From IMG/VR virus record IMGVR_UViG_3300027850_000002, positions 111,416 through 175,415 of that record: a stretch of DNA of 64,000 nucleotides; one strand, given 5' to 3'. Made by a program: the position numbers and the translations under genes. Source of the stretch: a virus. Below, in pieces: positions 2 through 43,533 of the stretch; position 1 is the first letter of the stretch, and every line of letters starts with the position of its first letter. Below the pieces are notes generated by a model that was not told the DNA's origin, did not search any database, and saw only the letters and a program-made list of their open reading frames with translations.

Positions 2-352
2 CTCGCGGCCTTTGGCGTGGTTAAGACTGCGACGGGGTTCAAGCAACCGGGGTTCAAGTCCGTCGGAATCCTACTTCCGAAGGCTGCGGATCTTCCGCCG
101 ATCCCACCGCCAAGCGTGCCTTCGCCGCTCGGTATTGGTAGGATCGAGAGCAACTACGACTTCGTACCCAAGGTCGCCTTCAACGTCGGAATGGGGGCTT
201 CGACTTCCACTGACGGAGCGGGCGCTCAGCGGGGAGTTCCAGCGGATACGGGACGTCGTCAACGCAGCGTCATCGACCGGGCGTTCCAACGCAACGAAGA
301 CGATTACGCAACAAGCAGCATGCCGTTGCCAGGGGACGTTGTCGCGCCATGA
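2..352 (+). CDS. 5'-partial tagged (K-x-A) putative internal virion protein
   Basis: Frame is open from base 2 (LAAFGVVKTATG...), so the gene starts before the window. It carries the end of the shared tag (L-x-x-F-G..KTA), and KVAFNVGMG/IDRAF resembles segments of the next ORF. Confidence 0.6.
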   Translation, partial: LAAFGVVKTATGFKQPGFKSVGILLPKAADLPPIPPPSVPSPLGIGRIESNYDFVPKVAFNVGMGASTSTDGAGAQRGVPADTGRRQRSVIDRAFQRNEDDYATSSMPLPGDVVAP

Positions 353-1146
353 CGCTCGAACTCATCTACGCAAATGGGCAGCTCGCGGCACTCGAACGCT
401 ACAAGCTCGGATTCCCCGCGCACCCAACGGTCGCGAACAGCGCCGTGCTGACGACGAAGAAAACTTCACCGACACTGCCCGCTGCAGCACAGCAGGGGAT
501 GGCGCCACCATCAACGCCCATGGGCCTCTCTCAGATCTTCGATGCGCACGAACAAGGTGAAACGCGCTCGGAACCTCGGCGCAAGCTGTCGGCCGATAAT
601 CTATGCACGTCGTGCCGAAGGATGAAGCACTACGGCAAATGCAGTCGTCCGCGTGCGATTCCCGAGAAGGCCGCTGATTTAAACATCGGGATGCAGGGCT
701 ACAGCCCTGAACAGGGCAACAACCCATCCACGAGCCCTAACTACCGCTCAGCGGTCAGCTCGATCAGCTCGCTCACGCGCGCGTTAGAGGGTCGCCCCGC
801 CGATGAGCAGGCAGCATCTGGGTTCGCGGACCTGTACCGCGGGGGCGGGATTTCGAACATGGCGGATGAGCCGGGCCAGATGTCGGGCAGCCTCGCCAAA
901 GTCGCGAACAAGCTCAGCGCCTTCATGTTGCCCGACGCAGGGCTCCATTCGATGCACGAGCAGCGGGGACCGACCGTGAACCCGTACGAAGAGCAGCGAA
1001 CACGGATGGGAGCGCCTGTCGGCTTCGGCGACGAGGGGCTGCAACGCATCAATCGGGCCTTCAATCAGATCGACCACGCGGCCGACACCACGAACATCGG
1101 GGGCGGCGCCGGCGATCCAGAGCCAGGGCCGGCGGTCCTTGGCTGA
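349..1146 (+). CDS. tagged putative internal virion protein (low complexity, small C/H cluster)
   Basis: ATGA overlap with upstream ORF. N-terminal IYANGQLAALERYKL tag, KAA/KVA sites, CTSCRRMKHYGKC cluster. Confidence 0.65.
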   Translation: MTLELIYANGQLAALERYKLGFPAHPTVANSAVLTTKKTSPTLPAAAQQGMAPPSTPMGLSQIFDAHEQGETRSEPRRKLSADNLCTSCRRMKHYGKCSRPRAIPEKAADLNIGMQGYSPEQGNNPSTSPNYRSAVSSISSLTRALEGRPADEQAASGFADLYRGGGISNMADEPGQMSGSLAKVANKLSAFMLPDAGLHSMHEQRGPTVNPYEEQRTRMGAPVGFGDEGLQRINRAFNQIDHAADTTNIGGGAGDPEPGPAVLG

Positions 1147-1981
1147 AGTTCACATCACGCGAACTACCGCACTGTTTCCGAGCGCCGTGTTCGTGCAATG
1201 GAACGTGGAATCGGAGGAGAGTGGAGCGTTCTTCGTCGATGTTGCGCGATCCGAGAGTCCCGACGGCCCATGGGAATACATCGCGACAGGTCTTCGTGAA
1301 GCGTACAACTTCGTCGACGATCAGTTCAACCTGCCTCCAGCAGACCCGCGGAACGCAGGTCGCGAGGGCTTGAACCTGTTCTCGCTCGCGCGTGCGGTCT
1401 ACTACCAAATTACAGTGACGCCGCCGTCGGGCTCCGCGAACGCGTTTCACAGCCACGCGGAACCTGTCGAACCTGGACTTGACCGACGCACACGTTTGTT
1501 CAAACGCAAAATCCTCCACGATCAAGCGGTCGGATACCGACGTCTAAACGGGATCCCACTCATCGTGTTGAAACGTCGTCGCTGGGGTGACCGTTGTCCG
1601 AAATGCTACGACCCCGTGACACGGGAATCGACACTCGAGCACTGCTTGACGTGCTTTGGAACGACGTTCGTCGGAGGCTACTGGACTCCGACGCCGATCC
1701 GCGGACGTCGTGAAGCAGCGACGGTCGAAACGAACATCACGGCACATGGCGATAGCGACGTGAAGTTCAACGACTTCAATATCCTTGACTACCCTCTTGT
1801 CGAATACAAAGACATCATTGTTGATGTCGTACGGAATGAACGCTACCAAGTTCAACGCGTTCACCCTACAGAACTGAAAAGCGTCACGGTACACCAGAAA
1901 CTAACGACGTCTCTACTCGGTCACAACTCGATTGAATACAAGCTGCTCGTGGACCTGACGGCAACGCCGTCTCTGTACTAA
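1139..1981 (+). CDS. putative head-closure/neck protein
   Basis: GDRCPKCYD...CLTCFGTTFVGGY motif typical of large-phage neck proteins. Lies just upstream of the tail terminator and sheath genes. Confidence 0.55.
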   Translation: MAEVHITRTTALFPSAVFVQWNVESEESGAFFVDVARSESPDGPWEYIATGLREAYNFVDDQFNLPPADPRNAGREGLNLFSLARAVYYQITVTPPSGSANAFHSHAEPVEPGLDRRTRLFKRKILHDQAVGYRRLNGIPLIVLKRRRWGDRCPKCYDPVTRESTLEHCLTCFGTTFVGGYWTPTPIRGRREAATVETNITAHGDSDVKFNDFNILDYPLVEYKDIIVDVVRNERYQVQRVHPTELKSVTVHQKLTTSLLGHNSIEYKLLVDLTATPSLY

Positions 1982-1984
1982 CCC

Positions 1985-2692
1985 ATGGCCGACAACTATC
2001 CCAAGTACGTACCGGACCCGAAGGTAGTACCTTCACCGGAAGAAACGCAGCAAGTCAGCATCCGTCCTGGGTCAAAACTTGCGGTGTTGGGAGTATTTGT
2101 CGAAATCATCCGAAGGCGTTTCGGGCGAGACATCGTGGGGGATGAATTCCAGTGGCGCTGGGACTCAGATATCAAGGTCACAAAGCTAGCCGTCGAGAGC
2201 GCGTTCAACGAAGACAAAACGCACCGGAACTTCCGTCCTGCCGTCTACGTGGATTGTGACGACCAGACGATGGGCCGTGTCGTACTCGGAGACCGGGCGG
2301 GTCTCAACCTCAAGACCGGGCTTGAAGGCTTCTGGAATCTGCAAACGGTTCCAATCCTGATCGAGTGCGTCACGGGAAAGCGCGCAGAGAGTGCTGCACT
2401 CGGCGACATCATCGGAATTTTCTTGCAGGCCTCGAGTGACCTCATCCAAGGCAAGTTCGGTTTCCACGACATGACGCCTGTTACGGTTGGACGAACACAG
2501 CCAGCGCAGCGCGACAAAGACCAATGGGTGACGTCCGTGACTTTCGTGGTGCAGTACCCGCAGCGTTGGACGAATGCTCCAACGGCACCGCTGCTGCGAG
2601 AGCTGGAGATGGATATCTCCCGTTCCGGTGCAGAATCAGCGACCGAGTTCTTCGAGTCTATCGCCCTGTCTTGGCAGGACGTGCCCGAGTAG
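1985..2692 (+). CDS. putative tail terminator/completion protein
   Basis: 235 aa, RPAVYV motif, synteny between neck and sheath. Confidence 0.5.
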   Translation: MADNYPKYVPDPKVVPSPEETQQVSIRPGSKLAVLGVFVEIIRRRFGRDIVGDEFQWRWDSDIKVTKLAVESAFNEDKTHRNFRPAVYVDCDDQTMGRVVLGDRAGLNLKTGLEGFWNLQTVPILIECVTGKRAESAALGDIIGIFLQASSDLIQGKFGFHDMTPVTVGRTQPAQRDKDQWVTSVTFVVQYPQRWTNAPTAPLLRELEMDISRSGAESATEFFESIALSWQDVPE

Positions 2693-2721
2693 GGCCCTTC
2701 GTCGTGTTTCGTTGCCCAACA

Positions 2722-2731
2722 CCCTATAATT
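2722..2731 (+). promoter_or_regulatory. CCTATAATT late-type -10 promoter of the sheath operon
   Basis: TATAAT at 2725-2730 in the intergenic gap, GGAG SD at 2751. Same motif recurs before other structural or tagged genes. Confidence 0.6.
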
Positions 2732-2762
2732 TCCGCAACCCTATGGACTCGGAGAACTGATC

Positions 2763-5156
2763 ATGGCCATCCGACCTGTCGTACTTGTTTACCAGGACCT
2801 GGCCACGCCGACGATTACGCCGACGTCGCCAGACCTGAACTGTTTGGTCGTTGGTCCGGCGTTTTGGATCCAGGACTACTTCCAACCCGGCACCACCGAC
2901 TACGCAGACAAGGCCGATATTCAGGTCACGTCTGCGTACGGTGCGCTGGAAACCAGCCCCGCTGCAGCGTTGCCGACGGGGGCCGCCGTGATCACGGTGG
3001 CATCGCCGCCAAACAACGCGGTGGGAGCGCTACTCGACGGAGACAGCGTCCAGATCTACTTCGACCAGGCCCGTGTTCGCATCGCGGGCAAAGGCGTCGA
3101 CGTTGGTGGCGGCGTTCAAGGAACGACCACGGTCCTGACGCCGAACGTGTTCGACACGGCCGAGGGAACTCCGACCACGTTCGCGACGCCTGGTCCCGGT
3201 CGTGCTCTTCCCGGTGACCGTTTGGTCATCGTGGATGCAGGCGCAGTCGTCATCGCGCGCACCGTGCTCACGGTTGTTACGGACACGCAGCTGCTGCTCA
3301 CGTCGGATGTGACCGGCGGTACGTTCGTGCCCGCGGCGAACCAGAGCTGGTACATCGAGCGCCAGGTCAACGACATCCAGATCAACTCGTCGTTCGTTTC
3401 CAGCACCGGAAACATCGTGAAGATCGCTGGTGGCGTCACGCTCCCCGTCACCGGCCAGGGCAGCAAGCCCGTGTCGTACGCGGTCGTGTACGAGGCGTAT
3501 CGCAGCCTCCAGCAGTCGCTGGTCGATCTCGACACCGTCGAGTCGCTGGTGGACATCGAGTCGAAGATCGGTCGTGTCGACGCGCGCAACCCACTCGCGA
3601 CGGGTGCCTTCGTGGCGCTTCAAAACACGACGTCCGTCGTTCAGTTCATCGGTGTCGTGTCGGACGATCTCCAGGGACATGTGTCCGTGCGAGACCATCT
3701 CTCGGCGCGACCCGACGTCTACGCCATCGTTCCGATGACGACGGACATTTCCATCTTCGTGATGTGGAATGTCGACTGTGTCGGTCTCGCACTGCCCGAC
3801 AACGTTCGCGGCCGTCCGCAGCGTTTCCGTGTCGTGATCGGTAGCGGCACGCTGCCCGTCACTAAGACGATCATCGAGCCTTCGGCCACCGGCCAGTCCG
3901 TGCAGCTCGCGGCCAGCGCGCCCACGGCAATCACCCGCCTCACGCTGACCGGCACGCTGAGCTTGGTCACGAACGGCGTGATTCCGGGCGACGTCCTGAG
4001 CGTCACCGTCACCAGCGCTGCGGGTGTTGTTGCGCTCGGTCTGTACCCGATCGGTGCCGTCGAAAATGCGACGATCGTCGAGGTCGACACAACGTCGCCC
4101 TTCGCGAGCGCCGGTGTCGCCAACATCAGCGTCACGATCTTCGAAGCGGACGGTGTGACGGTTCGTCTCGCGTCACAGGCACTGGTCGGCACAGTCACCG
4201 CGACGAGCGACGACCTCTATCTGATCCTCAAGGATCCGAGCGGGACGTTCGTCGTGAGCGGTGTTGTAGCCGGTGATCTCATCAAGATCCCCGTCGACCC
4301 GAACGCGGCCATCGACGACAACAGCGTGTTCGTCACCCTTGTGGTGAACAACATCATCAGCGACCAACGCTTGCAGCTCGTAAATAACGGGCAGGACTTG
4401 TCGACGGCTCAAAATGAGCTGCCGCACGGCGTGAAGCGAACCGGCAGCGCTCTTGTCGGCCTGACGACGATCAACTACCAAGTCGTGCGTACGCTGTCGA
4501 AAAGCCAGCAGGTGACCGAGCTGGTTGCGGTTGCGCAGTCGTTCAACTCCAAGCGCACGATTCTCGTGTGGCCGGATCGTTGTGATGTCGCAGGCGTGAC
4601 CGGCGGCAACAACCAGCCGGGCTACTACCTCGCAGCGGCAGTTGGCGGCATGACTGCAGGTCTGCCGTCGCAGCAGGGGTTCACGAACCTCGGCATCGCC
4701 GGCGTCAGTCAGATCTTCAACTCAAACACGTACTTCACGGACACCCAGCTCACTGACATCTCGAACGGCGGTTGGTACGTGTTCGCGCAGCAGACGACGA
4801 CGTCGTTGCCGTACACCATCCACCAGCTCACGACGGATCCTTCGACGCTCGAGTCGGGCGAATTCTCGGTCGTCAAGAACTTCGACTTCGTGTCGCTGTT
4901 CTTCGTCGACATCGTCGAGGACTTCCTCGGTCAGTACAACGTCACGGTCGACACGCTGACGTTGCTCGGCGCCGCGCTCAACACGGGAGCGCAGCTTCTC
5001 TTGCTGCGTACCGTTGCGAAGATCGGCGCACCGCTGACCTCGTTCACGCTCACCGGCATCAACGTCTCGCCGGCGTCGGCAGACCGTGTGCTCGTGTACT
5101 GCGCAATCGGTCTACCGAAGCCGCTCAACGTCATCGAACTCCACCTGGTGGCATAA
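2763..5156 (+). CDS. contractile tail sheath protein
   Basis: 797 aa. C-terminal HQLTTD...EFSVVKNFDFVS...PKPLNVIELHL is characteristic of sheath C-termini. Upstream of the tube gene. Confidence 0.85.
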   Translation: MAIRPVVLVYQDLATPTITPTSPDLNCLVVGPAFWIQDYFQPGTTDYADKADIQVTSAYGALETSPAAALPTGAAVITVASPPNNAVGALLDGDSVQIYFDQARVRIAGKGVDVGGGVQGTTTVLTPNVFDTAEGTPTTFATPGPGRALPGDRLVIVDAGAVVIARTVLTVVTDTQLLLTSDVTGGTFVPAANQSWYIERQVNDIQINSSFVSSTGNIVKIAGGVTLPVTGQGSKPVSYAVVYEAYRSLQQSLVDLDTVESLVDIESKIGRVDARNPLATGAFVALQNTTSVVQFIGVVSDDLQGHVSVRDHLSARPDVYAIVPMTTDISIFVMWNVDCVGLALPDNVRGRPQRFRVVIGSGTLPVTKTIIEPSATGQSVQLAASAPTAITRLTLTGTLSLVTNGVIPGDVLSVTVTSAAGVVALGLYPIGAVENATIVEVDTTSPFASAGVANISVTIFEADGVTVRLASQALVGTVTATSDDLYLILKDPSGTFVVSGVVAGDLIKIPVDPNAAIDDNSVFVTLVVNNIISDQRLQLVNNGQDLSTAQNELPHGVKRTGSALVGLTTINYQVVRTLSKSQQVTELVAVAQSFNSKRTILVWPDRCDVAGVTGGNNQPGYYLAAAVGGMTAGLPSQQGFTNLGIAGVSQIFNSNTYFTDTQLTDISNGGWYVFAQQTTTSLPYTIHQLTTDPSTLESGEFSVVKNFDFVSLFFVDIVEDFLGQYNVTVDTLTLLGAALNTGAQLLLLRTVAKIGAPLTSFTLTGINVSPASADRVLVYCAIGLPKPLNVIELHLVA

Positions 5157-5158
5157 CC

Positions 5159-5611
5159 GTGTCGGACTCCTTTTTCGACAAGTTCATCGCTGACCTCGTG
5201 AAAGGTGCCAACACCAACTCGAGGGAGAATGGCGGGCCCGGCGTGAACATCATCGTGGCGCGCGAAAACCACGGATGTGAAGAGAAACTCGCGAGCGAGA
5301 AGCTTGGAACGATCGCAGACGCCTATGCCAACGGTGCAACGGCAGCTGCTGCGGCGTTCGGAGTCAAGGAAGCGTTTCTCCCGGCGCTCCTTCCGCTCGC
5401 TGGTTCTCTGCTTGGAGGCACTGCGCTCCGTGCCGGTGCGGGCGCCGTCGCCAAAGGGGCGATGGGTCGCGGTGCAGCCGGTCTTGCTTCCAAGGTGGTG
5501 CCGAAGATGACGGGCGGCATCGGTGGCGCAGCCACGGACATGGCAGGTTCGATGGTAGGCGGTGCCATCGGCAACAAGCTCGCGCCGCAGCCGCAGCAGC
5601 AGCCGCAATAG
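5159..5611 (+). CDS. tagged glycine-zipper protein, putative internal virion protein
   Basis: GTG at 5159 right after the sheath stop. AYANGATAAAAAFGVKEAF tag followed by Gly/Ala hydrophobic helices. Confidence 0.65.
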   Translation: MSDSFFDKFIADLVKGANTNSRENGGPGVNIIVARENHGCEEKLASEKLGTIADAYANGATAAAAAFGVKEAFLPALLPLAGSLLGGTALRAGAGAVAKGAMGRGAAGLASKVVPKMTGGIGGAATDMAGSMVGGAIGNKLAPQPQQQPQ

Positions 5612-5619
5612 ATGAACTG

Positions 5620-6219
5620 ATGAGCGTCGAACGTTTCAAGATCAAGACCGCAAGCTTCGCTTCCGTGTTCCCGTCAGTGGCGGGACCTGCGGTAGGCGGC
5701 TTTGTGGGCTATGGCCTGGGACGTCGATACGGCAACCCAGAACTGGGTGCGTTGCTCGGCACGCTCACCATGGGCACTGCAGGCAAGCTTCTCGGCGAGA
5801 AGGTCCAGCAGGCAGAGGCGCAGGCACAGGCGGTTCCGCCAGGTGCGCCCTTCGATCTCGACGCTACGTCCCAAGACATTCCGGCGTGGGCGCTGCAGGG
5901 TGCGCACCTACTACAGCCACAGATAAAGCAGTCTGGGCACTTCGACGACATCGTAGGCAGCGACATGATGGGCGCCGCATGGCCGGTCGTCGAAGGTGTT
6001 CGCGAACACCAGCCGGCAGGGCAAATCGCGAAAAATGTTGCTGGTCAGGGTCTCGGAACTTTGGGCGGCGGACTGGTCGGACACGGACTCGGTGCACTCA
6101 TCAACAATGCCGCGGGACACCAGGTCCCCGGTATTCTCGGCGTTCCTCTTTCAACCCTGTTAACTGGTCTTGGCGCTACAATCGGTAACGTCAAGGGCCT
6201 CGATTTCGCACGCAAGTAA
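5620..6219 (+). CDS. glycine-zipper membrane protein with K-x-A site
   Basis: ERFKIKTAS at N-terminus, multiple GxxxGxxxG hydrophobic segments. Confidence 0.65.
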   Translation: MSVERFKIKTASFASVFPSVAGPAVGGFVGYGLGRRYGNPELGALLGTLTMGTAGKLLGEKVQQAEAQAQAVPPGAPFDLDATSQDIPAWALQGAHLLQPQIKQSGHFDDIVGSDMMGAAWPVVEGVREHQPAGQIAKNVAGQGLGTLGGGLVGHGLGALINNAAGHQVPGILGVPLSTLLTGLGATIGNVKGLDFARK

Positions 6220-6228
6220 GGAGCAACC

Positions 6229-7265: not shown

Positions 7266-7274
7266 GGGAACTCC

Positions 7275-7855: not shown

Positions 7856-7867
7856 TACGGTCGGGTC

Positions 7868-9274
7868 GTGAAGGACCCTCTAAGCGCACAACGTGGCGCC
7901 GCCAACCGCGGCGCTGCAGGTCTAGGACGTGTCGGTAAGGGGAACTGGGAGTTGGGGGTAGTTGTCGCCTACAACTCAGCGACTCATACGTCCATCGTGC
8001 GTACGCACAGTGGACGCCCTCTCCATGACGTGCCGCAGATCAAAGCGAGCGCGAGTGGCTTCGACCACATTCCCACAGGAACAACCGTTGTGATCTCGTG
8101 GGACCTCGGCATTCCAGCAATCGTTGGATGTATGGACATGCCGCGCTCTCCCCAGCCGGCGACGCAATCTCCCACGCTCACGGGCGTCGAGGGAGTTGGA
8201 AACGCAGACCCAACCCAGCTGACGCAGGGTTCGAACAACTACAAACCGACGAACGCACCCACCGACATGGGACAGGGTGACTGGGCCCAAGTAGGCACGA
8301 TGGGCAACCACGTTGCCGTGCTCGAGGGCGGCGTCTCGCTCTTGGGCAGCCCCTCCGCACACCTGCAGTCGCTGGGGACGTCTGGAACGATGCGAACCAT
8401 CGCGCGACGCATCCAACAGTTCTCGGACTTCGGTCAAATGCGAATCGAGAACGACCAAGGCAAGACGTCGTTCATCCTTCGCGCGGGGTCCAACCAGACA
8501 ACACAAACGGGGCAAGACGAACAGCACTGGACCATTCGATTGGACCTAGGCGCCACCGGCGACATGTTCGACTTCCGAATCCTTGAGCCCGAAGGTGCTG
8601 TGCTGTTCCGCCTCCACGCGGGCGCGGATGGACGTGTTCAGATCTTCGGCGAAGGCGGTGTCGATCTATCGTCGGGAGCGAGTGGGACCGGTCAAATGCG
8701 TCACGACATCGCAGGAGCCCGCGCGACTACCGTAGCCGGCGATGACACCCACGTCGTGGATGGGGCTTCTGACACCGTCGTTGCTGCGTCCGCAACCTAC
8801 GCCATCGGACGGGACATAACACGTTCGGTAGGACGCAACGCAACGGAGTTCATCGGAGGGGGCCGAGATGTTGGCGTGAGCGGCGATGAAACGCTCGCAA
8901 CCGCCGGTGATCGATCTACCAAAGTAGGTGGTAACGATAAGACCGATGTCACAGGAAACTCGACCATCAAGGCGATACGGGTAAACACGATCGACGGTGT
9001 TCAGGTCAAGCTCGGTTCGAACGCGGTGCAACCCGTCACCCGGAGCCTGGATTTTGGATCGAAGGTGCTAGCGCCTATCAGCGCAGCAGCGACCACGCTA
9101 CTCGCGGGGGCAGCCGCCGCCACGGTCATCGGTTCGGCGCTCCCCGGCCCGCCCGTGACCACTCCGTTGGCGCTCGCCGCACTGAATGCAGCAGTATCGA
9201 GCTTTGCATCCGCGGTGATCTCAGCCATCGCTGCATTCCCAGGAACCCTCTCCACGAAAGTGAAGACGGAGTAA
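7868..9274 (+). CDS. baseplate central spike (gp5/gpV/VgrG-like)
   Basis: N-terminal OB-fold-like GVVVAYN...P.GTTVVI. ~8-residue V/I-x-G-D/N beta-helix repeats (VAGDD, VSGDE, VGGND, VTGNS). Confidence 0.75.
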   Translation: MKDPLSAQRGAANRGAAGLGRVGKGNWELGVVVAYNSATHTSIVRTHSGRPLHDVPQIKASASGFDHIPTGTTVVISWDLGIPAIVGCMDMPRSPQPATQSPTLTGVEGVGNADPTQLTQGSNNYKPTNAPTDMGQGDWAQVGTMGNHVAVLEGGVSLLGSPSAHLQSLGTSGTMRTIARRIQQFSDFGQMRIENDQGKTSFILRAGSNQTTQTGQDEQHWTIRLDLGATGDMFDFRILEPEGAVLFRLHAGADGRVQIFGEGGVDLSSGASGTGQMRHDIAGARATTVAGDDTHVVDGASDTVVAASATYAIGRDITRSVGRNATEFIGGGRDVGVSGDETLATAGDRSTKVGGNDKTDVTGNSTIKAIRVNTIDGVQVKLGSNAVQPVTRSLDFGSKVLAPISAAATTLLAGAAAATVIGSALPGPPVTTPLALAALNAAVSSFASAVISAIAAFPGTLSTKVKTE

Positions 9275-9276
9275 GC

Positions 9277-14175: not shown

Positions 14176-14541
14176 ATGGCGCAGACCCTGACCGTCGCTG
14201 GCGCGGCCTCCTGTCCTTTCGTGGACGGTGGCGCCGTTGCTCCCATTCCCCTTGCGACTGCTCTCGGCTTCACGTCACGAGCAGACTTCCAGCGGAGCTA
14301 TCTCGGCGCCATTGTCGATGATCCTGTCAACTTCGGGACGCTCGCAGTGCCGGGTGCCAAGGGCGTCATCGTCATGTGCACGGCAGGCAGTTGCACGATC
14401 AAGTTCAACGGCGGTCTCGATGCGTGGCCCCTCTCGCCCGGCGGCTACTTCATTTGGATCAACACCGCGCAGCCATTCCCGACGTCGGCTCTGATCTCGA
14501 CGACAGGTGCTGCAGGCGTGTTCTTCCTCGCGGTAGGATGA
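14176..14541 (+). CDS. small beta-rich putative virion protein
   Basis: 121-aa beta-strand-rich ORF behind the late-type promoter. Confidence 0.6.
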   Translation: MAQTLTVAGAASCPFVDGGAVAPIPLATALGFTSRADFQRSYLGAIVDDPVNFGTLAVPGAKGVIVMCTAGSCTIKFNGGLDAWPLSPGGYFIWINTAQPFPTSALISTTGAAGVFFLAVG

Positions 14542-14544: not shown

Positions 14545-14994
14545 ATGCTACAAAGGGCTTTCGAACAGGGCTGTAGCAACGCGTGCGCACGCTTCGGCGT
14601 GAAGATCGCAGCTGTCCCTCTCGCGCGCCCGATACCGCGAATGACGACGCCACACGTGCCAAAGCCCGGCTTCAAGCTCACACCTCAAGAAGAAGCGCAG
14701 GCGTTACGCATGAAGAGTCAGTCGCCTGCACAACGGCAACAAGAACTCGGCTTGGACCGTGACACGCAGAACACGCAGTTCGCACAGCGGCACGACCTGC
14801 CCTCTGCATCCCCTGTGGCGGCTGCCGGGCGGGGTGCGCGTGGTGCGGGTGGTTTCATGCGTCCCATCAAGCGGGGCCTCGGTCTCGCTGCGCTCGGGGC
14901 CGCGGGTACGGCAGCCTACGGTCTCCACAAGCAGCACCATATTGACGAAGAGAAAATTCCGCTCGTCTACGCCCCTCTGCAAGGTGGTTTCTGA
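14545..14994 (+). CDS. tagged protein with C-terminal Gly/Ala TM
   Basis: AFEQGCSNACARFGVKIAA tag, GLGLAALGAAGTAAYGL segment. Confidence 0.65.
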   Translation: MLQRAFEQGCSNACARFGVKIAAVPLARPIPRMTTPHVPKPGFKLTPQEEAQALRMKSQSPAQRQQELGLDRDTQNTQFAQRHDLPSASPVAAAGRGARGAGGFMRPIKRGLGLAALGAAGTAAYGLHKQHHIDEEKIPLVYAPLQGGF

Positions 14995-15269
14995 TGACGC
15001 TCAAGCACGCGTACGCGAGAGGTTGTCGAGCGGCGCTCGAGAAGTTCGCGCTCGATCCTCCAACCGCTGTTGACGCGTTCATGGGCGCGGTGGAATCAGG
15101 CAAGGATGTTGCGCCTGAACCGGCATTGCCGCCGATGTCTCATGCACCCGGCGAGATGCTTCCTGCACTCGACGGCACGACGCCACTCTCGACGTCGCCG
15201 CCCATGTCGCCGGACCTCGGTTCCACCATCGGTGCACCGCCACCACCCATGATGGGCGCGCTGGGCTGA
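14994..15269 (+). CDS. tagged Pro-rich small protein
   Basis: AYARGCRAALEKFAL tag then Pro-rich disordered tail. Confidence 0.65.
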   Translation: MTLKHAYARGCRAALEKFALDPPTAVDAFMGAVESGKDVAPEPALPPMSHAPGEMLPALDGTTPLSTSPPMSPDLGSTIGAPPPPMMGALG

Positions 15270-15270: not shown

Positions 15271-16875
15271 GTGATGATCGGCAAGGGCTGGCTCAAGTTT
15301 GCGATCCTTGGAAGCACGTATGCACGGGCGCTCGAGAATGCGAACACGCGCGCAGGACGCCCTGGCGGAATGTTCTCGTCGATTGCAGAACAGCCACTGG
15401 CCAAACTCAAGCCAGGCGCATCAGCGTATGTGCGTGCGCCCGGTGCGCTGACGCCGACCGCAGACCAACGCGGCATGCAACAGATGCTCGCGAAAACGCC
15501 GTGGGCGGGTGATGACCATGGTGGGTCGCCGCACGCCGAAGCGACGTACAACGCGCTGTTGAAACGTCGGGGTATGGACGTGAAGACGCCGGGCGGCGAT
15601 ACGAACGCGCAAATCGCGAAGAGCTTCGGGGTCGGAGCCCGTGAACCGTCCGAATCCCATACCGCAGTGACGCGTAAAACGGACCTGCAGGGCCGGGCAG
15701 CGCAGACGCCGGACGGACGGAACCCACTCGAACATCAAGACCGTCGACTGCGAACGCCCAATCCAATGGGTGCGGGGGCTGTTGAGGACGTGCATCAGGC
15801 GCGTCCTATCCAACGGGAACGTCCGCGCGAGCCGCTACCCATGGAACGACACCGCCCGCTTCCTCCGATGCAGCAGGCGGCTCCAATGGCTGCGCCCATG
15901 CCTGCTGCACACAGCAGCGCAGCCACCAACGTGCTCACGGCGCCGCGCCCACCACAGCGGAACATTGCGACGAGTGTCATGAAGGCGGGGGCTGCTCAAT
16001 TCAAGATCGCCGGTCCGCTCGCGACGGCCGTGGGCATCGGTATCCCGCTGGCTGTCGGCGGAAGCATGCTCGCGGGTAAGCCGGGCATTCAGTCGAACAT
16101 CAAGAACCTGTTCGCGGGCAAAGGCACGACGGAGGAACAGGACAAAACGAACGAGCTGCCCGCAGGCGCGTTGCGACAAGCAGACGCAGTCCATCAAACA
16201 CTGTTGGCTCGCGGGTTCGACCCGACGTCGATGCGCATCGGGATTGACGCGCCACCCGGTTCCGGCAAGACGACGCTAGCGCGCGCGCTCGCTCACCGCA
16301 CCGGCATGAAGCACTACGGCCTCGACTGGGAGCCCGGCAATGCCTGGAAGTCGACGATTGGTCTGGGTCGTAACGTCGAGAAGATGCCGCACGCGCCTCG
16401 AGCGGGCGAGATCATGGAGCACTACCTGCTCAACCGTACACACGATCCGGAACTGTTCGACGCTCAGATCCACTTGCGTAGAGACCCGAACATCATCCGT
16501 CAGCAGCTCAACCATCGCGGCAACGCCGCATACATCGGGGACATGATGGACCTCGACAAGTCGCTCGCCGTTGCCGACCTTGGCTTTGACACGCTGGGCG
16601 GCGAGACGATCGATCTCGGCGACGGCACGGTCATGAAGCTTCGGCCGCATGGAGGCTGGGGAGACAACCTCGACCAAGCGCTCATGGCGAAGGGCATCAA
16701 CCCAGCAGGCATGAGTCGTCATTCGAAGCTGCTCTCGCTCCACCGCGGGACACCTACGGAAGGTGCTGGCTGGACGCCGTACGTGAAAAATCCACTGTCA
16801 GGCGGTCAGACGCTTGCGCTGGGTGCGTCGATCCCGTTGGGCGTCATGGCTGCGCGCGCGCTCGCTCGTCACTGA
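15271..16875 (+). CDS. K-x-A protein with TM-flanked P-loop (nucleoside/nucleotide kinase-like) domain
   Basis: IGIDAPPGSGKTT Walker A. Hydrophobic segments on both sides. KFA/KIA sites. Confidence 0.65.
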   Translation: MMIGKGWLKFAILGSTYARALENANTRAGRPGGMFSSIAEQPLAKLKPGASAYVRAPGALTPTADQRGMQQMLAKTPWAGDDHGGSPHAEATYNALLKRRGMDVKTPGGDTNAQIAKSFGVGAREPSESHTAVTRKTDLQGRAAQTPDGRNPLEHQDRRLRTPNPMGAGAVEDVHQARPIQRERPREPLPMERHRPLPPMQQAAPMAAPMPAAHSSAATNVLTAPRPPQRNIATSVMKAGAAQFKIAGPLATAVGIGIPLAVGGSMLAGKPGIQSNIKNLFAGKGTTEEQDKTNELPAGALRQADAVHQTLLARGFDPTSMRIGIDAPPGSGKTTLARALAHRTGMKHYGLDWEPGNAWKSTIGLGRNVEKMPHAPRAGEIMEHYLLNRTHDPELFDAQIHLRRDPNIIRQQLNHRGNAAYIGDMMDLDKSLAVADLGFDTLGGETIDLGDGTVMKLRPHGGWGDNLDQALMAKGINPAGMSRHSKLLSLHRGTPTEGAGWTPYVKNPLSGGQTLALGASIPLGVMAARALARH

Positions 16876-27120: not shown

Positions 27121-27129
27121 CCTATAATT
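27121..27129 (+). promoter_or_regulatory. CCTATAATT late-type promoter
   Basis: TATAAT 27123-27128, GTG at 27138. Confidence 0.6.
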
Positions 27130-27137: not shown

Positions 27138-28532
27138 GTGGAAAATTACCTGAAGATAGCTTTCCTCGACGGAGCGCAGGATGCCCTGTCACGACATGGC
27201 CTCGCTCCCAAGCGGGAGAAATCCATGCTTCGGAAGGTGCTTCCTTGGGCAGCGGCGCTTGGCGCGGGGGCAGGGGCGTACAAATTCTTACGGACGCCAT
27301 CGTTCTCCGCGAACCCGCTCCTTCGGAAGGTGCAACAGCAAGCCGCGAGCAAGGGCTTCCACCGCATCGTCGACGTCACGCCGGACGGAACCGGCGGACT
27401 GTTTCGTCCGGTGGCCAACGCCGAAGGCAAGCTGTCTCCGTGGAACAAGCTGAAGATGTTCCTCAACGAGGGTACGACCGAAGCGATTCCGATCTCGCAC
27501 GCAGGTGACGTTCCGAAAGTCGTCGGGCACAAGGGGCCGCGTCGCGTGCAGGGCGTCACCCACGGGCGGCATGACGTCTTCGGAACCTCCGACGCCGTAC
27601 GTGGCGGCATCGACATCGAGGGGCCGCAAGAGACGATGACAGCGATGAACCGCGTATCCAAGGGCGGCAAGAAGTTCGAAGCAAACCTGTTGAACAAACA
27701 CGCTCCGGGGTCGATGCCCGAGACACATACCGACCTCGGTCAACTGTTCGAAGGTCTACCTGCCGATCGCCAGCAAGCCGTTGCGGAGCTGCAGAGCCGG
27801 GTTCTTTCAAACCACGGCGAGAACGTATTGCTGAAACCGAACCAGGGCTTGGCATCCGGAGGAAAGTTCCCTCGTGCAAACCAGGACTGGAGTTCACAGC
27901 TTCAAGCATACGATGCACACATGGCAGACCCTGCCAAACGCCAAACGTGGCGAGCAGCGAAGCAAGTCGGCGGAAACGAACTGTCGAAATACATGATCGA
28001 CAACGGATTGTATGAAGGTGGCGTTCTCCATCAGGCGCTGCGCAACCCGAAGTCGGTGCTTGCACAGAAACTGATCGAGAATCCATTGGGTGAATGGCGG
28101 GCACACACGATGGCGGGCAGCGTGCCTGCGAACATGATGTTCCCGCGTTTCTCCAAAGGACCGAAGGCCATCGCGGGCGTCATCCATCGTGACAAGGCGA
28201 TGCAGAGTTTTCTCGAGGATACGGTCGCGAAGCTGCCGCCGAAGTATCAGTCGGGGAACTACGCGTTCGATGTGATGCCACACCGCCAACCGGATGGTTC
28301 CATCGGATACAAGATTCTCGAGATGAACCCAACCGAACAAGCCACGGCGACGGCGGCGGGTGGTGGATCTGGTTTCTTGGATCCGTCCACCGTACCGTTC
28401 ACCGGACACTCGCATTACCGCGCTGCGACGGGCCGCCACACGCCGTTGGTGGCGGGCTTGGGCGGCGTCGGCGCCGCGAGTCTCGCAGGTCTCGGCACGC
28501 GCGCGCTCACTCGTGACGAGGACGAACAATAA
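27138..28532 (+). CDS. tagged, TM-flanked ATP-grasp (RimK-like) ligase
   Basis: AFLDGAQDALSRHGL tag. VLLKPNQGLASGG, LAQKLI, EWRAH, YAFDV, ILEMNP ATP-grasp motifs. Gly/Ala TM near each end. Confidence 0.7.
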   Translation: MENYLKIAFLDGAQDALSRHGLAPKREKSMLRKVLPWAAALGAGAGAYKFLRTPSFSANPLLRKVQQQAASKGFHRIVDVTPDGTGGLFRPVANAEGKLSPWNKLKMFLNEGTTEAIPISHAGDVPKVVGHKGPRRVQGVTHGRHDVFGTSDAVRGGIDIEGPQETMTAMNRVSKGGKKFEANLLNKHAPGSMPETHTDLGQLFEGLPADRQQAVAELQSRVLSNHGENVLLKPNQGLASGGKFPRANQDWSSQLQAYDAHMADPAKRQTWRAAKQVGGNELSKYMIDNGLYEGGVLHQALRNPKSVLAQKLIENPLGEWRAHTMAGSVPANMMFPRFSKGPKAIAGVIHRDKAMQSFLEDTVAKLPPKYQSGNYAFDVMPHRQPDGSIGYKILEMNPTEQATATAAGGGSGFLDPSTVPFTGHSHYRAATGRHTPLVAGLGGVGAASLAGLGTRALTRDEDEQ

Positions 28533-28992
28533 CCCCGTCGTTCATCCACCGCTGCTTGAAGCGTTGGATGGGCGTCCACCGGCGCAGTTGTCGGCGAACG
28601 CTCGGATCAGCGAGGTAGACAATGTCTTCATCCTCGTCGATCGCATGTACGACGCCGTAATGGTCGTCGTCCAAGCCAACCAGGACCACGTTGCCACGCT
28701 TCAATGCGCGCACGAGGCCTAACCAACTTAGGCGTTCGCGCGGAGCGACCCGCAGGTCACACGAACGCAAGAACCGAACGATCGGTCCCTCCGCGGTGCC
28801 TTCACTCGTGGTGCCGACTGCGTCGAGAACCTCTGTGTAACTAACGTCAGCACCGAAGAACGACGCAATCGCGTAGGTGCAGCAAGGGCCGCACGTGTAG
28901 CGCGTGAACTGAAGCTCGCGTGGAAAGTCGATGTAGCCGACAAGCACTGGGCGCCTCCGAGGCAGGTCTTCGTGAGTGTTCACGGTGATCAT
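28507..28992 (-). CDS. C39-like cysteine peptidase
   Basis: QFTRYTCGPCC, DHYGVV, VYLADP. Confidence 0.75.
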   Translation of the reverse strand: MITVNTHEDLPRRRPVLVGYIDFPRELQFTRYTCGPCCTYAIASFFGADVSYTEVLDAVGTTSEGTAEGPIVRFLRSCDLRVAPRERLSWLGLVRALKRGNVVLVGLDDDHYGVVHAIDEDEDIVYLADPSVRRQLRRWTPIQRFKQRWMNDGVIVRPRHE

Positions 28993-30400: not shown

Positions 30401-30895
30401 CTAGCAACCCGATGCAGTCGTCAACTCTTGATCCTGCCATTGCAGCTGCTTCACTTGACGTTTCACATGCGCCGCGTACTCAAGGCAGTTGAACGTTCCG
30501 CCTGCTGAGCCGTCGTGCACAGACAAGAGCAGGCTGCAGTGGTCGACCATCCACTCGTTACGTCGTTGCATCTTCCAAGGCTTGTACGGTCCCGCGGAGA
30601 CGACGTGGATCTCTTTTGCTTTGTTCAGGAGTGCTCGGTACCGCTCTTGAGAAGGCAGTGGCCAGTTCTCGCCCCACCCATCGCAAGGCAGCGCCGCGAT
30701 GAACGGTATGCCCAGCTCGACGCATGTCTCGGCTGCCCAGGTATCGACACCGAGTGCCATGCCCGAGATTGCGTAGACTGGCCAGTTCGCGCAAAGGGCA
30801 TTACGTAACGCAATACGGATGCACAATACGACGGGGTGAAGAGGGTCCCAGCCGCCCAACTTGTCTGGACGATGTCCCGTGAATGCAACAATCAC
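30401..30895 (-). CDS. YspA/DUF1273 SLOG-family protein
   Basis: AFTGHRP, ISGMALGVD.WAAE, MQRRNEWMVD, GGT.NC..YA. Confidence 0.85.
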   Translation of the reverse strand: MIVAFTGHRPDKLGGWDPLHPVVLCIRIALRNALCANWPVYAISGMALGVDTWAAETCVELGIPFIAALPCDGWGENWPLPSQERYRALLNKAKEIHVVSAGPYKPWKMQRRNEWMVDHCSLLLSVHDGSAGGTFNCLEYAAHVKRQVKQLQWQDQELTTASGC

Positions 30896-30913
30896 GCGTG
30901 GTACCGTCCGAGG

Positions 30914-31093
30914 ACGTTCACTCTCATTGCAGTTATTGTTGCCGTTGGTGTCATTGTGTGGGCGATCAACTACGCCATCCCGATGGAGCCGATGTTCAAG
31001 CGGGCGGTTACCGCGGTGGCTGTTGTATGTGTCGTACTTTACGCGCTGAAGGTCTTTGGCCTGTTCACAGGCCACATGCGTTTCCCGGGCTAA
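30914..31093 (+). CDS. Thivi_2564-like two-TM small membrane protein (start uncertain)
   Basis: LIAVIVAVGVIVWAINYAIPM...VVCVVLYALKVFGL. No canonical start codon at the expected position. Confidence 0.45.
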   Translation, partial: TFTLIAVIVAVGVIVWAINYAIPMEPMFKRAVTAVAVVCVVLYALKVFGLFTGHMRFPG

Positions 31094-31437: not shown

Positions 31438-31781
31438 GGTCCCGTCATCCTCACACCGTGCAGCCGCCCGACATCCCGCACCTGCTTGACCACGTTCTCC
31501 CAGTGCTTGGAGCCGCTTCGCGTCAGCTCGCCTTCGACGATCCCGGGGTGTGTCTTTTTTTCTTCGTCCAGGACGCGGTCCCAGCGCCAGCCCTGCAACG
31601 TCATCGCGAGGAACCAGGCGCTGCGTGTGAAGTCAGGGCTGCCTGTGTTCAATGCAGCGTCTGCAACTGCGTAGGCGGCGACCCGACGCCAATCCGGCGC
31701 CTCAGTCCACGGGACTGGATCGAAGTCGTGCTCGAGAGCGGCCTTCGCACACGTCGTGAAGTACTCGTCGTACGGCCTCAT
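31434..31781 (-). CDS. degenerate RyR-domain protein
   Basis: GWRWDRVLDEEKKTHP. Paralogue of the adjacent gene. Confidence 0.6.
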   Translation of the reverse strand: MRPYDEYFTTCAKAALEHDFDPVPWTEAPDWRRVAAYAVADAALNTGSPDFTRSAWFLAMTLQGWRWDRVLDEEKKTHPGIVEGELTRSGSKHWENVVKQVRDVGRLHGVRMTGP

Positions 31782-32206
31782 GCCGGGCGCGGGGTGACCT
31801 GAAGGCTCTCACGCACATTCAGCGCCGTGCTCCCCATCACTGGGTGGTTGAGCGCCATCGCAACCGAGAGCACCGTGCTCACGAACAGGAAGTCCTTTGC
31901 CTTCTGTTCTTCGGTCAGCTCGTCGTAGGGAACGAAGCACGGATGCTCCTTCTTCGTTGGGTCTTTCACCGCGCCGAACTTCCAACCGTCCGCGGCCTTC
32001 TCTGCCAACCACGACTCGTGGGCCGCGCGAGGATTGTTCCCTGCGAACACGCCGTCAACGCCGTTGATCGCGCTCTTACGCTGCCAGTCCTCGGCTGCGC
32101 TCCAGGAGGGTTGGGTGAAGTCGCCCAGGGCCCTGCAGTAAGTCGCATTAACCTCGTGCGCAGCTTCCGCGCAAATCAATCGAACCTCTTTACACGTTCG
32201 CGGCAT
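31778..32206 (-). CDS. RyR-domain protein
   Basis: HESW...GWKFGAVKDPTKKEHPCFVPYDELTEEQKAKD. Confidence 0.8.
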   Translation of the reverse strand: MPRTCKEVRLICAEAAHEVNATYCRALGDFTQPSWSAAEDWQRKSAINGVDGVFAGNNPRAAHESWLAEKAADGWKFGAVKDPTKKEHPCFVPYDELTEEQKAKDFLFVSTVLSVAMALNHPVMGSTALNVRESLQVTPRPA

Positions 32207-32885: not shown

Positions 32886-33488
32886 TCAATCAGCGTCAGA
32901 AACGCCGCAAACCACGCACACATCGTTGGAGAAACGATGAATCGCACAGGACTCAGGAGAAACGAGCGTGGAGTGTTGAGCACCGCCGAAGTCCTGTGAT
33001 GCGATGTCCGTAGGGGCGTCGAGCATGCCCATCAGCGACTTGAACCGTGTCATCTGATCGGGTCCCATACGGTCAACGACGATGCCGGCCTCCCGCAGGA
33101 AATCGGGAACATCGGCGCTCTTGCCGTAGCGGCTCTCGTAGTGCTCGTCGTAGCAGACCCTCGAGATGCCCGCATTGACGACGCGCTTGGCACAATCCCA
33201 ACACGGAGTGACCGTTACGTAGAGCGTGCAGCCCTCCGCGAAGCGGCCCGCGAAATCGATCGCGTTCGACTCGGCGTGAAGGGTTCGTACACAGTGCCCT
33301 TCGACCATCTGGCAACCAACCTCATCGCACGATGGCTGGTGTCGGGGAGCGCCGTTGTAGCCTGTGGCCACGATACGGTGCGCCGAATCGGTGATGATCG
33401 CGCCAACGTGTTTGCGAGGGCAACTTGCCCGCATCGCAGCAACGTAAGCGAAGCGCATCATGTAGGTATCCCAATCAGGGCGAGACAT
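32886..33488 (-). CDS. dCMP deaminase
   Basis: CPRKHVGA, TGYNG, HAESNAI, PCWDC. Confidence 0.9.
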   Translation of the reverse strand: MSRPDWDTYMMRFAYVAAMRASCPRKHVGAIITDSAHRIVATGYNGAPRHQPSCDEVGCQMVEGHCVRTLHAESNAIDFAGRFAEGCTLYVTVTPCWDCAKRVVNAGISRVCYDEHYESRYGKSADVPDFLREAGIVVDRMGPDQMTRFKSLMGMLDAPTDIASQDFGGAQHSTLVSPESCAIHRFSNDVCVVCGVSDAD

Positions 33489-33981: not shown

Positions 33982-34002
33982 CCACCGTCCGTATCACGCA
34001 CG

Positions 34003-34188: not shown

Positions 34189-34215
34189 GTGCGGTCTCCT
34201 AGATGGGATGTCCGG

Positions 34216-34820: not shown

Positions 34821-34824
34821 AAGT

Positions 34825-39109: not shown

Positions 39110-39113
39110 GGGT

Positions 39114-41218: not shown

Positions 41219-41219
41219 G

Positions 41220-41636
41220 TTAGGGCTCCTTGGGCTTGTCGGGCTTGTCGGGTTTATCGTGTTTGGCGGGCTCGCCTGCTTCACCGTTCACGAGCAATCG
41301 ATCGGGAATCGGCGGCATCAGAACAGGTGTTGGTGTCGGCTCGACGGGCAAGACAGTCGGACCGACGATCCAACCGCCCGCCTTCAAGATCGACAGGGCC
41401 TCGAGAGGTGCGTCGAACTCGGTCTCCGGTTCTCCGAGAAAATCAACAAGGCCCCATGTGATGGGAAACCGCCCTCGCTTCACACGAGCACGCACCCGCA
41501 CGCGCACAGTGTTGTTGGGGACGGGCGCGTCCTTGGACTCGGGCTCAGCTTTACCCAGTGCAGCAGGTGCGCCTTGAAGTTCAGTTTTTTCCTGTGCAAC
41601 AGGTGCACGCAGCGGTCGTTTCACCTGACGCTTCAT
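41220..41636 (-). CDS. Pro-rich hypothetical protein
   Basis: ATGA-coupled, ends in a (DKP)3 repeat. Confidence 0.5.
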   Translation of the reverse strand: MKRQVKRPLRAPVAQEKTELQGAPAALGKAEPESKDAPVPNNTVRVRVRARVKRGRFPITWGLVDFLGEPETEFDAPLEALSILKAGGWIVGPTVLPVEPTPTPVLMPPIPDRLLVNGEAGEPAKHDKPDKPDKPKEP

Positions 41637-42145
41637 GGTTGCGGCTCCCATACTCCATTGGTGACGTGACCGTGAGCGCCGCACGTACGGCACTTCAAGC
41701 TCGGCGTCAGCGTGAGCGGTTCAACGCAGATGATCTGGTGGACCGGAGCCCCGTCGAGAGGTCGCACGGCGCAGAACGACTGGCACACGGCGTTCGAGTT
41801 GCGTGCGTCGATGTGCGTGTGCAGCCAGCCGATGAGGATCTCGTCTTTATCGAGCACGGCCTCGAACGTGTGGCCATGTCCCAGCTCAAGTGCTCCGACG
41901 TGGACAAGCGGCTCCTTGGATGTAGGCTGCGCCTTCGTGGGATCATCACGCCACGCGGGCCTGCCATTGATCTCGTCGAGGTCATCGGCGGTGCGCGCGA
42001 TCGGCTCCTCGAACCTTTGCTTACGCAAGCAGTCACTGCACAACGGGCGGTGTGCGAGCGGCGTGTTCGGGACATGATAGAGACGCTCGTCGATGCGCTT
42101 GCAGTCGCACTCGCCGACGCCGACGTAGACCGGACGCTCCATCAT
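41633..42145 (-). CDS. Cys/His-rich protein with DUF6527-like C-terminus
   Basis: PLTLTPSL.C..CG.HG.VTNG.W. Confidence 0.6.
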   Translation of the reverse strand: MMERPVYVGVGECDCKRIDERLYHVPNTPLAHRPLCSDCLRKQRFEEPIARTADDLDEINGRPAWRDDPTKAQPTSKEPLVHVGALELGHGHTFEAVLDKDEILIGWLHTHIDARNSNAVCQSFCAVRPLDGAPVHQIICVEPLTLTPSLKCRTCGAHGHVTNGVWEPQP

Positions 42146-43533
42146 CAGCGCCGTCCCGGCAACGCGAACGCGGCAGCGGCGGCTTCCTCACCCAGCGAGG
42201 CCCACTTCGGATTCTGTGGTGGGCTGTGTTCTTGGATGAGGGGCTTCGCGTTGCCGAACGCCTGGCCCATCAGGTTGCCGGGACGGGCCGGGTCCTTGAT
42301 GTAGTTCGTGAACGCGTGGTTCATGCCGTGCTGGTGCGCAGCTGCAGCAGCTTCGCCGCGCTCTATCACATCAGTACGAAGGCCCGTGGGCTGACCCGGC
42401 TTGATCGGAAGGTAGTCCACGGCTTTGCCACCGACGATGTTGCCTTCGTGCACGTCGTGCAGACGCATGCCGTTGGGACGCTCGCCGCGCACGCGCGTGG
42501 CCGCTTCGAAGCTGGACGTCGCGCCCGGGTGATCGGTGGCGTGCTCGTAGAAGTGCGCGGGTCCGATCTTTGTCGGGGTCTCACCCTTGTACTGCGCGAC
42601 GTACGGGTTGCCGCGCAGTGCGGTTCCGGCCTCCGCCTTGTTCGCGACCATCAGGGGACCGGAGATGCCTTGCGGGTCGTAGACCTTGCGGACCGCGATG
42701 CCGTGCTCGGGGTGCGCGACGAGCGTCGACGTTCCCTCCATGCCGCTGCCGATGTGTTTGATCTGGCTGCCGGCCGCAGACGGCTTGAGCACGCCGGGCG
42801 TGGTAGCGAGCCGGTTCGCTGCACCCATGTTGCCGGTGTTGATGTGCTGCTGGATTGCACGCATGCCTGCGCGCGCAGCCGTCTTCTCCGTTGAGAACGA
42901 TGCGGCCTTCTCGCCGAGCGACTTCTCGCGTCCGGTCAGCGGGATCTCGTGGTGATCGCGTGCCGCTACGTGCGCGTGGTCGATCGTGAACTTTGCATCG
43001 AACGCGGGAAGGTGACCTTCAACGCGCCCCTTGTCGCCGAGGTAGCCAAGCGTAATGTGCGGGGTGAAGGTGTGGAGATCGGACGGGTCGATACCGTGCG
43101 TAGAAAGAGCACGCGACATGTCGACGTGGAGGTGTTCGAGGCCTGGCGCGTCGAGTAGCGCGACCAGAGCAGTCGAAGGCTTGCCGCCGCTCGAGGCGCC
43201 ATCGAAGTAGCCCCAGCCTTGGATCTTGGCGTCGATGGGTTCGGTCTTTTCGCCGACCTGGCGAAGCGCGGAGAGTGCGGCATGTACCTTCTCGGGTGGA
43301 TGGTCCTCGGCGGGCTTGCGCGTGTAGACCAACGTGACGTGGTCAATGTCCTTGTGCTTCGACGCATCCGGGATGACCTTCCTCTGGATTTCCCGAAGGT
43401 TGTCAGCGACATGCTCGGGCACGCGAACGTGCACGAAGAACGTCTTTGGATCAGTCGAAATCCTCGCAGTCTTCACCTGGCTGGAGGCCAGAAGAAGCTC
43501 ATCGAGCACCGCGGCAAACGAGACGGTTCGCAC
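42145..43533 (-). CDS. 2H phosphoesterase (Acb1/LigT-like) fused to a minimal protein-kinase-like domain, with K-x-A sites and C-terminal tag
   Basis: HVTL and HITL 2H motifs. IGSGMEG, AVRK, HDVHEGN, VDY kinase motifs. GTG 6 nt after TATAAT. Confidence 0.75.
   Translation of the reverse strand: MRTVSFAAVLDELLLASSQVKTARISTDPKTFFVHVRVPEHVADNLREIQRKVIPDASKHKDIDHVTLVYTRKPAEDHPPEKVHAALSALRQVGEKTEPIDAKIQGWGYFDGASSGGKPSTALVALLDAPGLEHLHVDMSRALSTHGIDPSDLHTFTPHITLGYLGDKGRVEGHLPAFDAKFTIDHAHVAARDHHEIPLTGREKSLGEKAASFSTEKTAARAGMRAIQQHINTGNMGAANRLATTPGVLKPSAAGSQIKHIGSGMEGTSTLVAHPEHGIAVRKVYDPQGISGPLMVANKAEAGTALRGNPYVAQYKGETPTKIGPAHFYEHATDHPGATSSFEAATRVRGERPNGMRLHDVHEGNIVGGKAVDYLPIKPGQPTGLRTDVIERGEAAAAAHQHGMNHAFTNYIKDPARPGNLMGQAFGNAKPLIQEHSPPQNPKWASLGEEAAAAAFALPGRR

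Follow-up and report, generated by a model that had tools for sequence, protein, structure and literature searches.

Background

Detailed knowledge of how a large phage chooses the proteins that it carries into the next cell is confined to T4, with partial knowledge for phiKZ-like phages. In phage T4, IPI-III, the enzyme Alt, gp67 and gp68 share an N-terminal peptide of 10-20 residues, the capsid-targeting sequence (CTS) (PMC5694885; PMC3012670). Here we describe a helical tag of about 20 residues, borne mostly at the N-terminus by otherwise dissimilar late proteins of an uncultured phage, and we suggest that it might play a comparable role. The stretch analysed (hereafter the window) comprises 64,000 nucleotides (nt), positions 111,416 to 175,415 of the IMG/VR virus record IMGVR_UViG_3300027850_000002. 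It forms the final 64 kb of a single virus contig of 175,415 bp with a guanine-cytosine content of about 0.60.

Resemblance to the T4 system is found at two levels. Firstly, in both cases a short and portable N-terminal peptide heads diverse proteins, an enzyme among them. Secondly, the genes in question are late genes of a large myovirus which also encodes a head protease (here a candidate one). Nevertheless, the tag bears no sequence resemblance to the T4 CTS, and a conserved cleavage site behind it, whether [LI]-x-E or another, is lacking. Unlike the CTS, it is present on 13 proteins per genome, it is lineage-specific and has been exchanged on one cargo, and the packaging of its bearers is presumed.

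In the phiKZ-like phage SPN3US, gp47, gp53 and gp54 were shown by mass spectrometry to carry propeptides of 80-130 residues that are cut at A/S/G-x-E (PMC5694885). There, an N-terminal region is likewise conserved on proteins which have otherwise diverged (head-internal ones in that phage), a membrane-type helix comes next in gp47, and the virion contains an RNA polymerase, as it probably does here. In contrast, our tag is a 20-residue helix without shared cut site, and it is known from genes alone.

Encapsulin cargo-loading peptides offer a further parallel, as a short conserved peptide docks unrelated enzymes inside a shell of HK97 fold. These peptides are usually C-terminal and extended; their consensus differs from that of the tag, whose binding to a capsid protein is hypothetical. 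Payloads of extracellular contractile injection systems (eCIS) such as Photorhabdus virulence cassettes (PVC) possess N-terminal signal peptides and are loaded by the Pvc15 ATPase (PMC11495950). An N-terminal element on unrelated payloads and a particle with contractile tail are common to both cases, and three of our tagged genes (T10-T12 below) belong to the tail module. The eCIS signals are longer, largely disordered and not known to have a fixed motif. Double-glycine leaders, finally, are likewise N-terminal amphipathic helices with spaced hydrophobic residues, and a C39 peptidase gene stands beside one tagged gene. However, the Gly-Gly site is missing here, and a complete genome that carries the tag has no C39 gene.

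A family of helical tags

The tag conforms to the consensus h-x-x-A-[YFH]-x-x-G-x-x-x-A-[LM]-x-x-[FY]-[GK]-h and corresponds to a helix of about 20 residues, nearly always N-terminal. The genome contains 13 clear copies (in genes T1 to T13) and one doubtful open reading frame (ORF) of 55 amino acids (aa). Seven copies precede the window; they are situated behind the capsid gene and between or behind RNA polymerase genes. The remaining six are the following:

2..352, + strand: 3' part of T8, 131 aa; the gene starts 43 nt before the window and the visible end of the tag occupies nt 2-31
349..1146, + strand: T9, 265 aa; tag at nt 352-411; body predicted to be disordered (Atlas model, predicted local distance difference test (pLDDT) 0.41)
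5159..5611, + strand: T10, 150 aa, between sheath and tube genes; internal tag at nt 5306-5377, then a glycine-zipper segment
14545..14994, + strand: T11, 149 aa; tag at nt 14545-14610; Pro-rich middle and C-terminal hydrophobic helix
14994..15269, + strand: T12, 91 aa; tag at nt 14994-15053; Pro-rich body
27138..28532, + strand: T13, 464 aa from GTG 27138; tag at nt 27138-27200, then an Ala/Gly-rich helix, a domain of predicted ATP-grasp fold and another Ala/Gly-rich helix

Genes were called by a simple in-house caller, which missed one tagged gene of 70 aa. The tag of T13 is N-terminal provided that translation starts from GTG at 27138.

The first-pass annotation of the window had proposed a six-member set defined by the spaced core G-x3-A-x3-[FYH]. 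Five of its motifs (349, 5159, 14545, 14994 and 27138) are indeed present and belong to one family, as does the motif in the partial ORF at the window start. The sixth, at the C-terminus of the ORF at 42145, proved to be a chance match: left out of the model, it scores -3.3 bits and ranks 127, and in the orthologues P0029-P0037 it is absent or out of register.

Comparison with shuffled sequences separates the core from the complete motif. In the whole-genome proteome the bare core is not enriched (47 occurrences, 39 expected), whereas the extended pattern [YF]xxGxxxAxxx[FYH][GAK][LV] occurs six times against 0.065 expected (200 shuffles). When each of the 12 N-terminal copies was in turn omitted from the profile, it ranked first among 243 proteins in ten cases and second in two. 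The first 32 residues of all proteins were also compared blindly with one another, without use of the earlier pattern, and the tag family again emerged, as the largest cluster of the genome.

The Gly residue and the Ala four residues later are invariant in all 13 copies. As all four codons are in use for each of them, it is the protein that is conserved and not the DNA; a DNA-level repeat as the cause of the motif is thereby ruled out. The Gly occupies residue 9-12 in 12 of the 13 proteins, the helix begins at residue 2-5, and in many copies a Pro-containing linker comes after it. All conserved positions (hydrophobic, Ala and aromatic, Gly, Ala-Leu, aromatic) share one face of the helix. Judged by its small-xxx-small pattern, this face would be suited to close packing on a partner helix. 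T4 has already furnished the idea of a capsid-targeting peptide common to several proteins; the present motif, which the first-pass annotation did not recognise as a described family, is absent from Pfam and PHROGs, neither of which gave a match on any tagged protein.

Restriction to late genes

Megablast found no DNA-level match to known phages. Among cultured phages, Salmonella phage Arash is the one most similar in its proteins, its sheath and capsid proteins being 32% and 41% identical to ours. A contractile tail is encoded in the window (sheath gene at 2763-5156, gp5-like spike gene at 7868-9274).

The tagged genes are confined to the late part of the gene set. All 13 lie on the + strand, which is the strand of virion genes and harbors only 38% of genes (P about 4e-6), and 12 of them fall into a single block of 50 genes that has the portal gene at one end and the last of the baseplate genes at the other. 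Within the block they are found between and after the two RNA polymerase genes, between the connector-like genes and the sheath gene, between the latter and the tube gene, and where the tail module ends. They are thus interleaved with RNA polymerase subunits whose Arash homologues are, according to the Arash paper, among the proteins with highest spectral counts in the virion preparation, although the list is not a stringent one, with 116 proteins called "structural".

The thirteenth gene, T13, stands alone among minus-strand genes and has its own copy of the element CTATAAT. Copies of this element in the window, identified by sequence match, are:

27122..27128, + strand: before T13, 9 nt ahead of its start
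2724: before the sheath gene
14163: before the gene at 14176
43546-43540, - strand: before the ORF at 42145..43533
before the genes at 55849 and 56486

The element is enriched in the window (six copies, 0.5 expected), and six more of the 12 copies in the genome lie upstream. If the corrected GTG starts of T13 and of the 42145 ORF are used, each copy precedes the start of a same-strand gene by 6-61 nt; the sheath gene, T1, T7, T13 and the 42145 ORF are among the genes served. Because of its position before the sheath gene, we interpret CTATAAT as a putative late promoter. The annotation had placed the tagged genes in structural operons or behind their own CTATAAT; T1, T7 and T13 share this element with the sheath gene. 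The element usually reads C-CTATAAT-T and is mostly only 6-12 nt away from the start codon, a spacing that suggests near-leaderless late transcripts. In close relatives it shows a strand bias of 64 to 6, and it is absent upstream of T13 homologues in distant relatives.

Variation between lineages

Relatives were sampled as 80 loci (0.9 Mb in total) round capsid-protein homologues of 63-97% identity. Two further phages were of special use, a complete relative with capsid protein 72% identical (G005) and a distant phage in which this identity falls to 28% (G006). A six-frame profile scan of the 0.9 Mb returned 83 matches that scored 8 bits or more, every one of them on the virion strand. In searches of whole records, four close relatives had between 6 and 12 tagged ORFs each. 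With few exceptions they represent the same families as here, about a dozen small disordered or glycine-zipper families, so the tagged set is conserved and cannot be called polymorphic, as the first-pass annotation had it. Within orthologue sets the defining positions of the tag are kept and the x positions vary; T8 orthologues, for example, retain the tag.

In the complete relative G005 the profile found almost nothing. Inspection, together with a neutral filter (G-x3-A-[LMQ] within residues 3-23, later positions ignored), uncovered at least eight tags at the same genomic positions. There the second aromatic position is occupied by Leu or Ile in seven cases and by an aromatic residue in one; the corresponding numbers for the present genome are two and eight (Fisher p = 0.015).

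The distant phage G006 presents a different situation. Its T13 homologue is 61% identical to ours from residue 22 onward, yet alignment fails at the N-terminus. When the N-termini of G006 were clustered blindly, this protein fell together with two others that share D-E-L-x-K-I, a pattern (defined post hoc) that occurs in G006 four times against 0.2 expected, three of the four being N-terminal. In terms of these sequences, the tag varies in step within a lineage and the head motif has been exchanged on one conserved cargo, which now matches its own genome, as would be predicted for an address tag.

In Arash, no tag was detected by profile, iterated profile, blind N-terminal clustering or neutral regular expression, nor were homologues of the tagged families found.

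Bodies of the tagged proteins

Beyond the tag the proteins appear to have nothing in common, as had been claimed for the smaller set. Without the tag, no pair of bodies shows significant BLAST similarity (best E = 0.08), and profile-profile comparison of four orthologue sets gave nothing convincing (best probability 9%). Disordered or Pro-rich bodies are those of T1, T4, T6-T9 and T12. The body of T4 (our gene, not the phage) contains internal repeats and a charged tail (Atlas pLDDT 0.46). The gene, at L005:5643-6947, encodes 434 aa with two internal repeats of ~90 residues and a tail rich in Lys, Asp and Glu, and is conserved in G005. No relatives of T4 were detected elsewhere; ESM Atlas gave none for T4 or T9, the models of both being disordered, and by hhalign the T4 family is unrelated to Arash gp217.

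Low-complexity bodies of this kind would hide homology, and tagged genes often stand in tandem. One could therefore imagine that the helix has no addressing function and is just the best-conserved remnant of one old family of small proteins whose bodies diverged. We find this improbable. Proteins of ATP-grasp and kinase-like folds are both headed by the tag and cannot be paralogues, the head motif was exchanged on cargo that is otherwise 61% identical, and the tag is kept at the extreme N-terminus after an insertion, as described below.

A second group of bodies, those of T2, T3, T10 and T11, contains glycine zippers or hydrophobic helices. T10 is adjoined, still between sheath and tube genes, by an untagged glycine-zipper protein (5620-6219, + strand; sub-threshold match to Gly-zipper_Omp), and in relatives the gene at this position does bear a tag. 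T11 and T12 adjoin a P-loop protein (15274-16875), which was considered as a possible AAA+ loader of the eCIS type and reader of the tag. Its AAA_18 and AAA matches are only sub-threshold, and it has no homologue in the tag-bearing G005.

The tag itself is an amphipathic helix with flanking basic residues, and in T2, T3, T10, T11 and T13 hydrophobic helices rich in Ala and Gly come after it or are paired with it. It could then be an in-plane membrane anchor which targets late proteins to the envelope of the infected cell (for lysis, exclusion or envelope remodelling) and has no relation to the virion. Such a role seems distinctly unlikely to us. Helices that bind lipid can usually do without a Gly and an Ala that are invariant in identity and spacing, seven or so of the tagged proteins have no hydrophobic segment, and a lipid target would yield neither lineage-specific variants nor the exchange of tags on conserved cargo.

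The third kind of body is enzyme-like. T13 has no Pfam match. In its AlphaFold model (pLDDT 82), residues 2-19 form a helix of their own, from which a loop leads to a long Ala/Gly-rich helix. Foldseek matched the model best to D-Ala-D-Ala ligases (Ddl), LysX/ArgX and RimK (probability 1.0, target TM-scores of 0.43-0.53); the modelled domain is of ATP-grasp fold, and the original ATP-grasp assignment of 27138-28532 is upheld at this level. Members of the T13 family retain the tag helix even where cargo identity has fallen to 37%. One homologue contains a large zinc-finger-like insertion; its helix stands at the very N-terminus of the enlarged protein instead of the place where alignment would put it. 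The placement of the tag thus depends on position in the protein. Insertions of ~250 residues after the tag occur in some T13 homologues (P0024, P0026, L090:2242-4371) and resemble a SWIM zinc finger (C-x-C...C-x-H).

The other enzyme-like cargo is a stand-alone kinase-like protein of ~300 aa present in many other phages, with N-termini that range from the canonical tag to clade-specific variants. In the present phage this domain is fused behind a 2H phosphoesterase and the tag is lost.

These enzymes bear on another explanation, in which the tag is a shared assembly element: tag helices would bundle into one hetero-oligomeric complex, for example for ejection or as a membrane channel, and no separate receptor would exist. 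A small-xxx-small face, as deduced from the pattern, is typical where helices pack on each other, glycine-zipper or disordered proteins of the sort known from ejection complexes are frequent among the members, and in-step change within a genome is also expected if tags bind each other. It is not easily reconciled with such a bundle, however, that the tag heads enzymes of different folds (ATP-grasp, kinase-like) and that the number of tagged proteins varies between phages from 3 to 13. The tag also stays N-terminal after insertions, which better fits a docking signal. We therefore regard the bundle as unlikely, though it deserves to be kept in mind.

A possible address for the virion

We suggest that the helix addresses proteins to the virion, much as the T4 CTS does, and is read by a common phage-encoded partner; we assign to this reading a probability of roughly 0.4. 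Late in infection, one such partner would recognise the tag and bring the tagged proteins to the assembling virion, most likely into the prohead interior or core, from where they would leave with the DNA. The cargo would consist of disordered proteins and membrane-active glycine-zipper proteins, joined in some lineages by the ATP-grasp enzyme and the kinase-like enzyme. Restriction to late genes, interleaved RNA polymerase genes, enzymes driven by the presumed late promoter and membrane-active bodies all fit with a virion destination.

Several points speak against this proposal. The presence of tagged proteins in virions is presumed from sequence and gene context, and the partner that reads the tag is hypothetical. 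Neither the tag nor any tagged family was detected in Arash, whose virion proteome is the only one from a cultured relative. Covariation evidence is modest, consisting of the p = 0.015 for G005 and of a three-member cluster in G006 with its post hoc pattern. The tag of T10 lies at residues 50-73 between two glycine-zipper stretches, and does so in relatives too. Membrane-type helices in five tagged proteins could equally mean that the destination is the membrane of the infected cell. Further, no residue at a fixed distance after the helix is conserved in the 13 copies or in orthologue sets.

The last point concerns possible processing of the tag. Glu-containing triplets near its end occur at about chance frequency, and a "K-x-A" or Glu-type protease site after the tag is not universal; there is no sign that the tag is cut off. 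A candidate protease is nevertheless encoded:

L005:13594-15336, 6.4-4.7 kb before the window: candidate head protease, 580 aa, PHROG "head maturation protease" (E = 1.9e-7)

Public data contain 944 members of this family; of the homologues listed, roughly a tenth have an intein. The candidate has no sequence match in PDB and its AlphaFold model (pLDDT 51) is too poor for assignment of fold class. Long helices are predicted in its C-terminal half, which is possibly a fused scaffold. A separate scaffold-like protein of 192 aa is encoded 4.6 kb before the window.

The most extensive form of the addressing idea can be offered only tentatively. A lineage-specific, co-evolving code of N-terminal helices, present in a widespread lineage of freshwater and soil phages, would load a dozen proteins for injection with the DNA, including membrane-active glycine-zipper proteins, an ATP-grasp ligase and a kinase-like protein, and the code could be swapped when cargo moves between phages.

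If the tag is a virion address, injected proteins of uncultured phages become predictable from sequence, the ATP-grasp and kinase-like enzymes are flagged as likely effectors of the first minutes of infection, and a candidate tool for loading of foreign proteins is at hand. A second tag, unrelated to that of T4, would also provide an experimental handle on selection of virion cargo, since a consensus, 13 clients, variants and a natural exchange are available. Should the tag serve membrane targeting or assembly instead, it would still define a new functional class among unannotated late genes of an abundant lineage.

T13 and its neighbourhood

T13 has a convergent neighbour:

28507..28947, - strand: stand-alone Peptidase_C39, 146 aa, E = 9e-10

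The protein aligns with the ComA peptidase domain and has Gln, Cys, His and Asp in place. Its adjacency to T13 is kept in four phages (G000, G006, G008 and G009). As a convergent pair of a membrane-helix-flanked ATP-grasp protein and a C39 peptidase, the two genes recall those for maturation of graspetides and bacteriocins.

Could the tag then be a leader peptide, recognised by C39 or T13 as its processing or modifying enzyme, as double-glycine and graspetide leaders are? The intact-looking C39 next to T13 and the amphipathic helical nature of double-glycine leaders would be in line with that. In the complete G005, however, which has at least eight tags, neither T13 nor C39 was found by profile search, and C39 is also absent by Pfam search. 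Moreover, the 13 copies have no Gly-Gly, Gly-Ala or Gly-Ser pair at any constant distance behind the helix, and T13 is itself tagged. A leader function is thus very improbable. For the same reason, namely the tags of G005, C39 or T13 as general reader of the tag is ruled out, and the T13-C39 pair is best seen as a separate module in which T13 happens to bear a tag.

Three further proteins are encoded nearby on the - strand, a YpsA/SLOG (DprA-like) protein (30401-31075), a RyR-domain protein (31778-32179) and a dCMP/cytidine deaminase (32886-33488). Together with T13 and C39 they are 37-62% identical to genes of G006, as compared with 28% for the capsid protein, which suggests that a block of genes was exchanged between lineages.

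The 42145 ORF and its kinase-like domain

The ORF whose C-terminus had been mistaken for a tag can be described as follows:

42145..43533, - strand: fusion of a 2H phosphoesterase and a protein-kinase-like domain; the likely start is GTG 43533, after CTATAAT 43546-43540

Pfam confirms the phosphoesterase that was originally assigned to it. This half belongs to the LigT/2'-5' RNA ligase superfamily and gives a sub-threshold match to Acb1. One clade of the kinase-like domain has a different head motif; it was not found among viral contigs. The domain displays a Gly-rich loop, a VRK Lys, a D-x-R-x-x-N loop and an I/V-D-Y motif, and in other phages the same domain is either fused to different N-terminal domains or stands alone with a tag.

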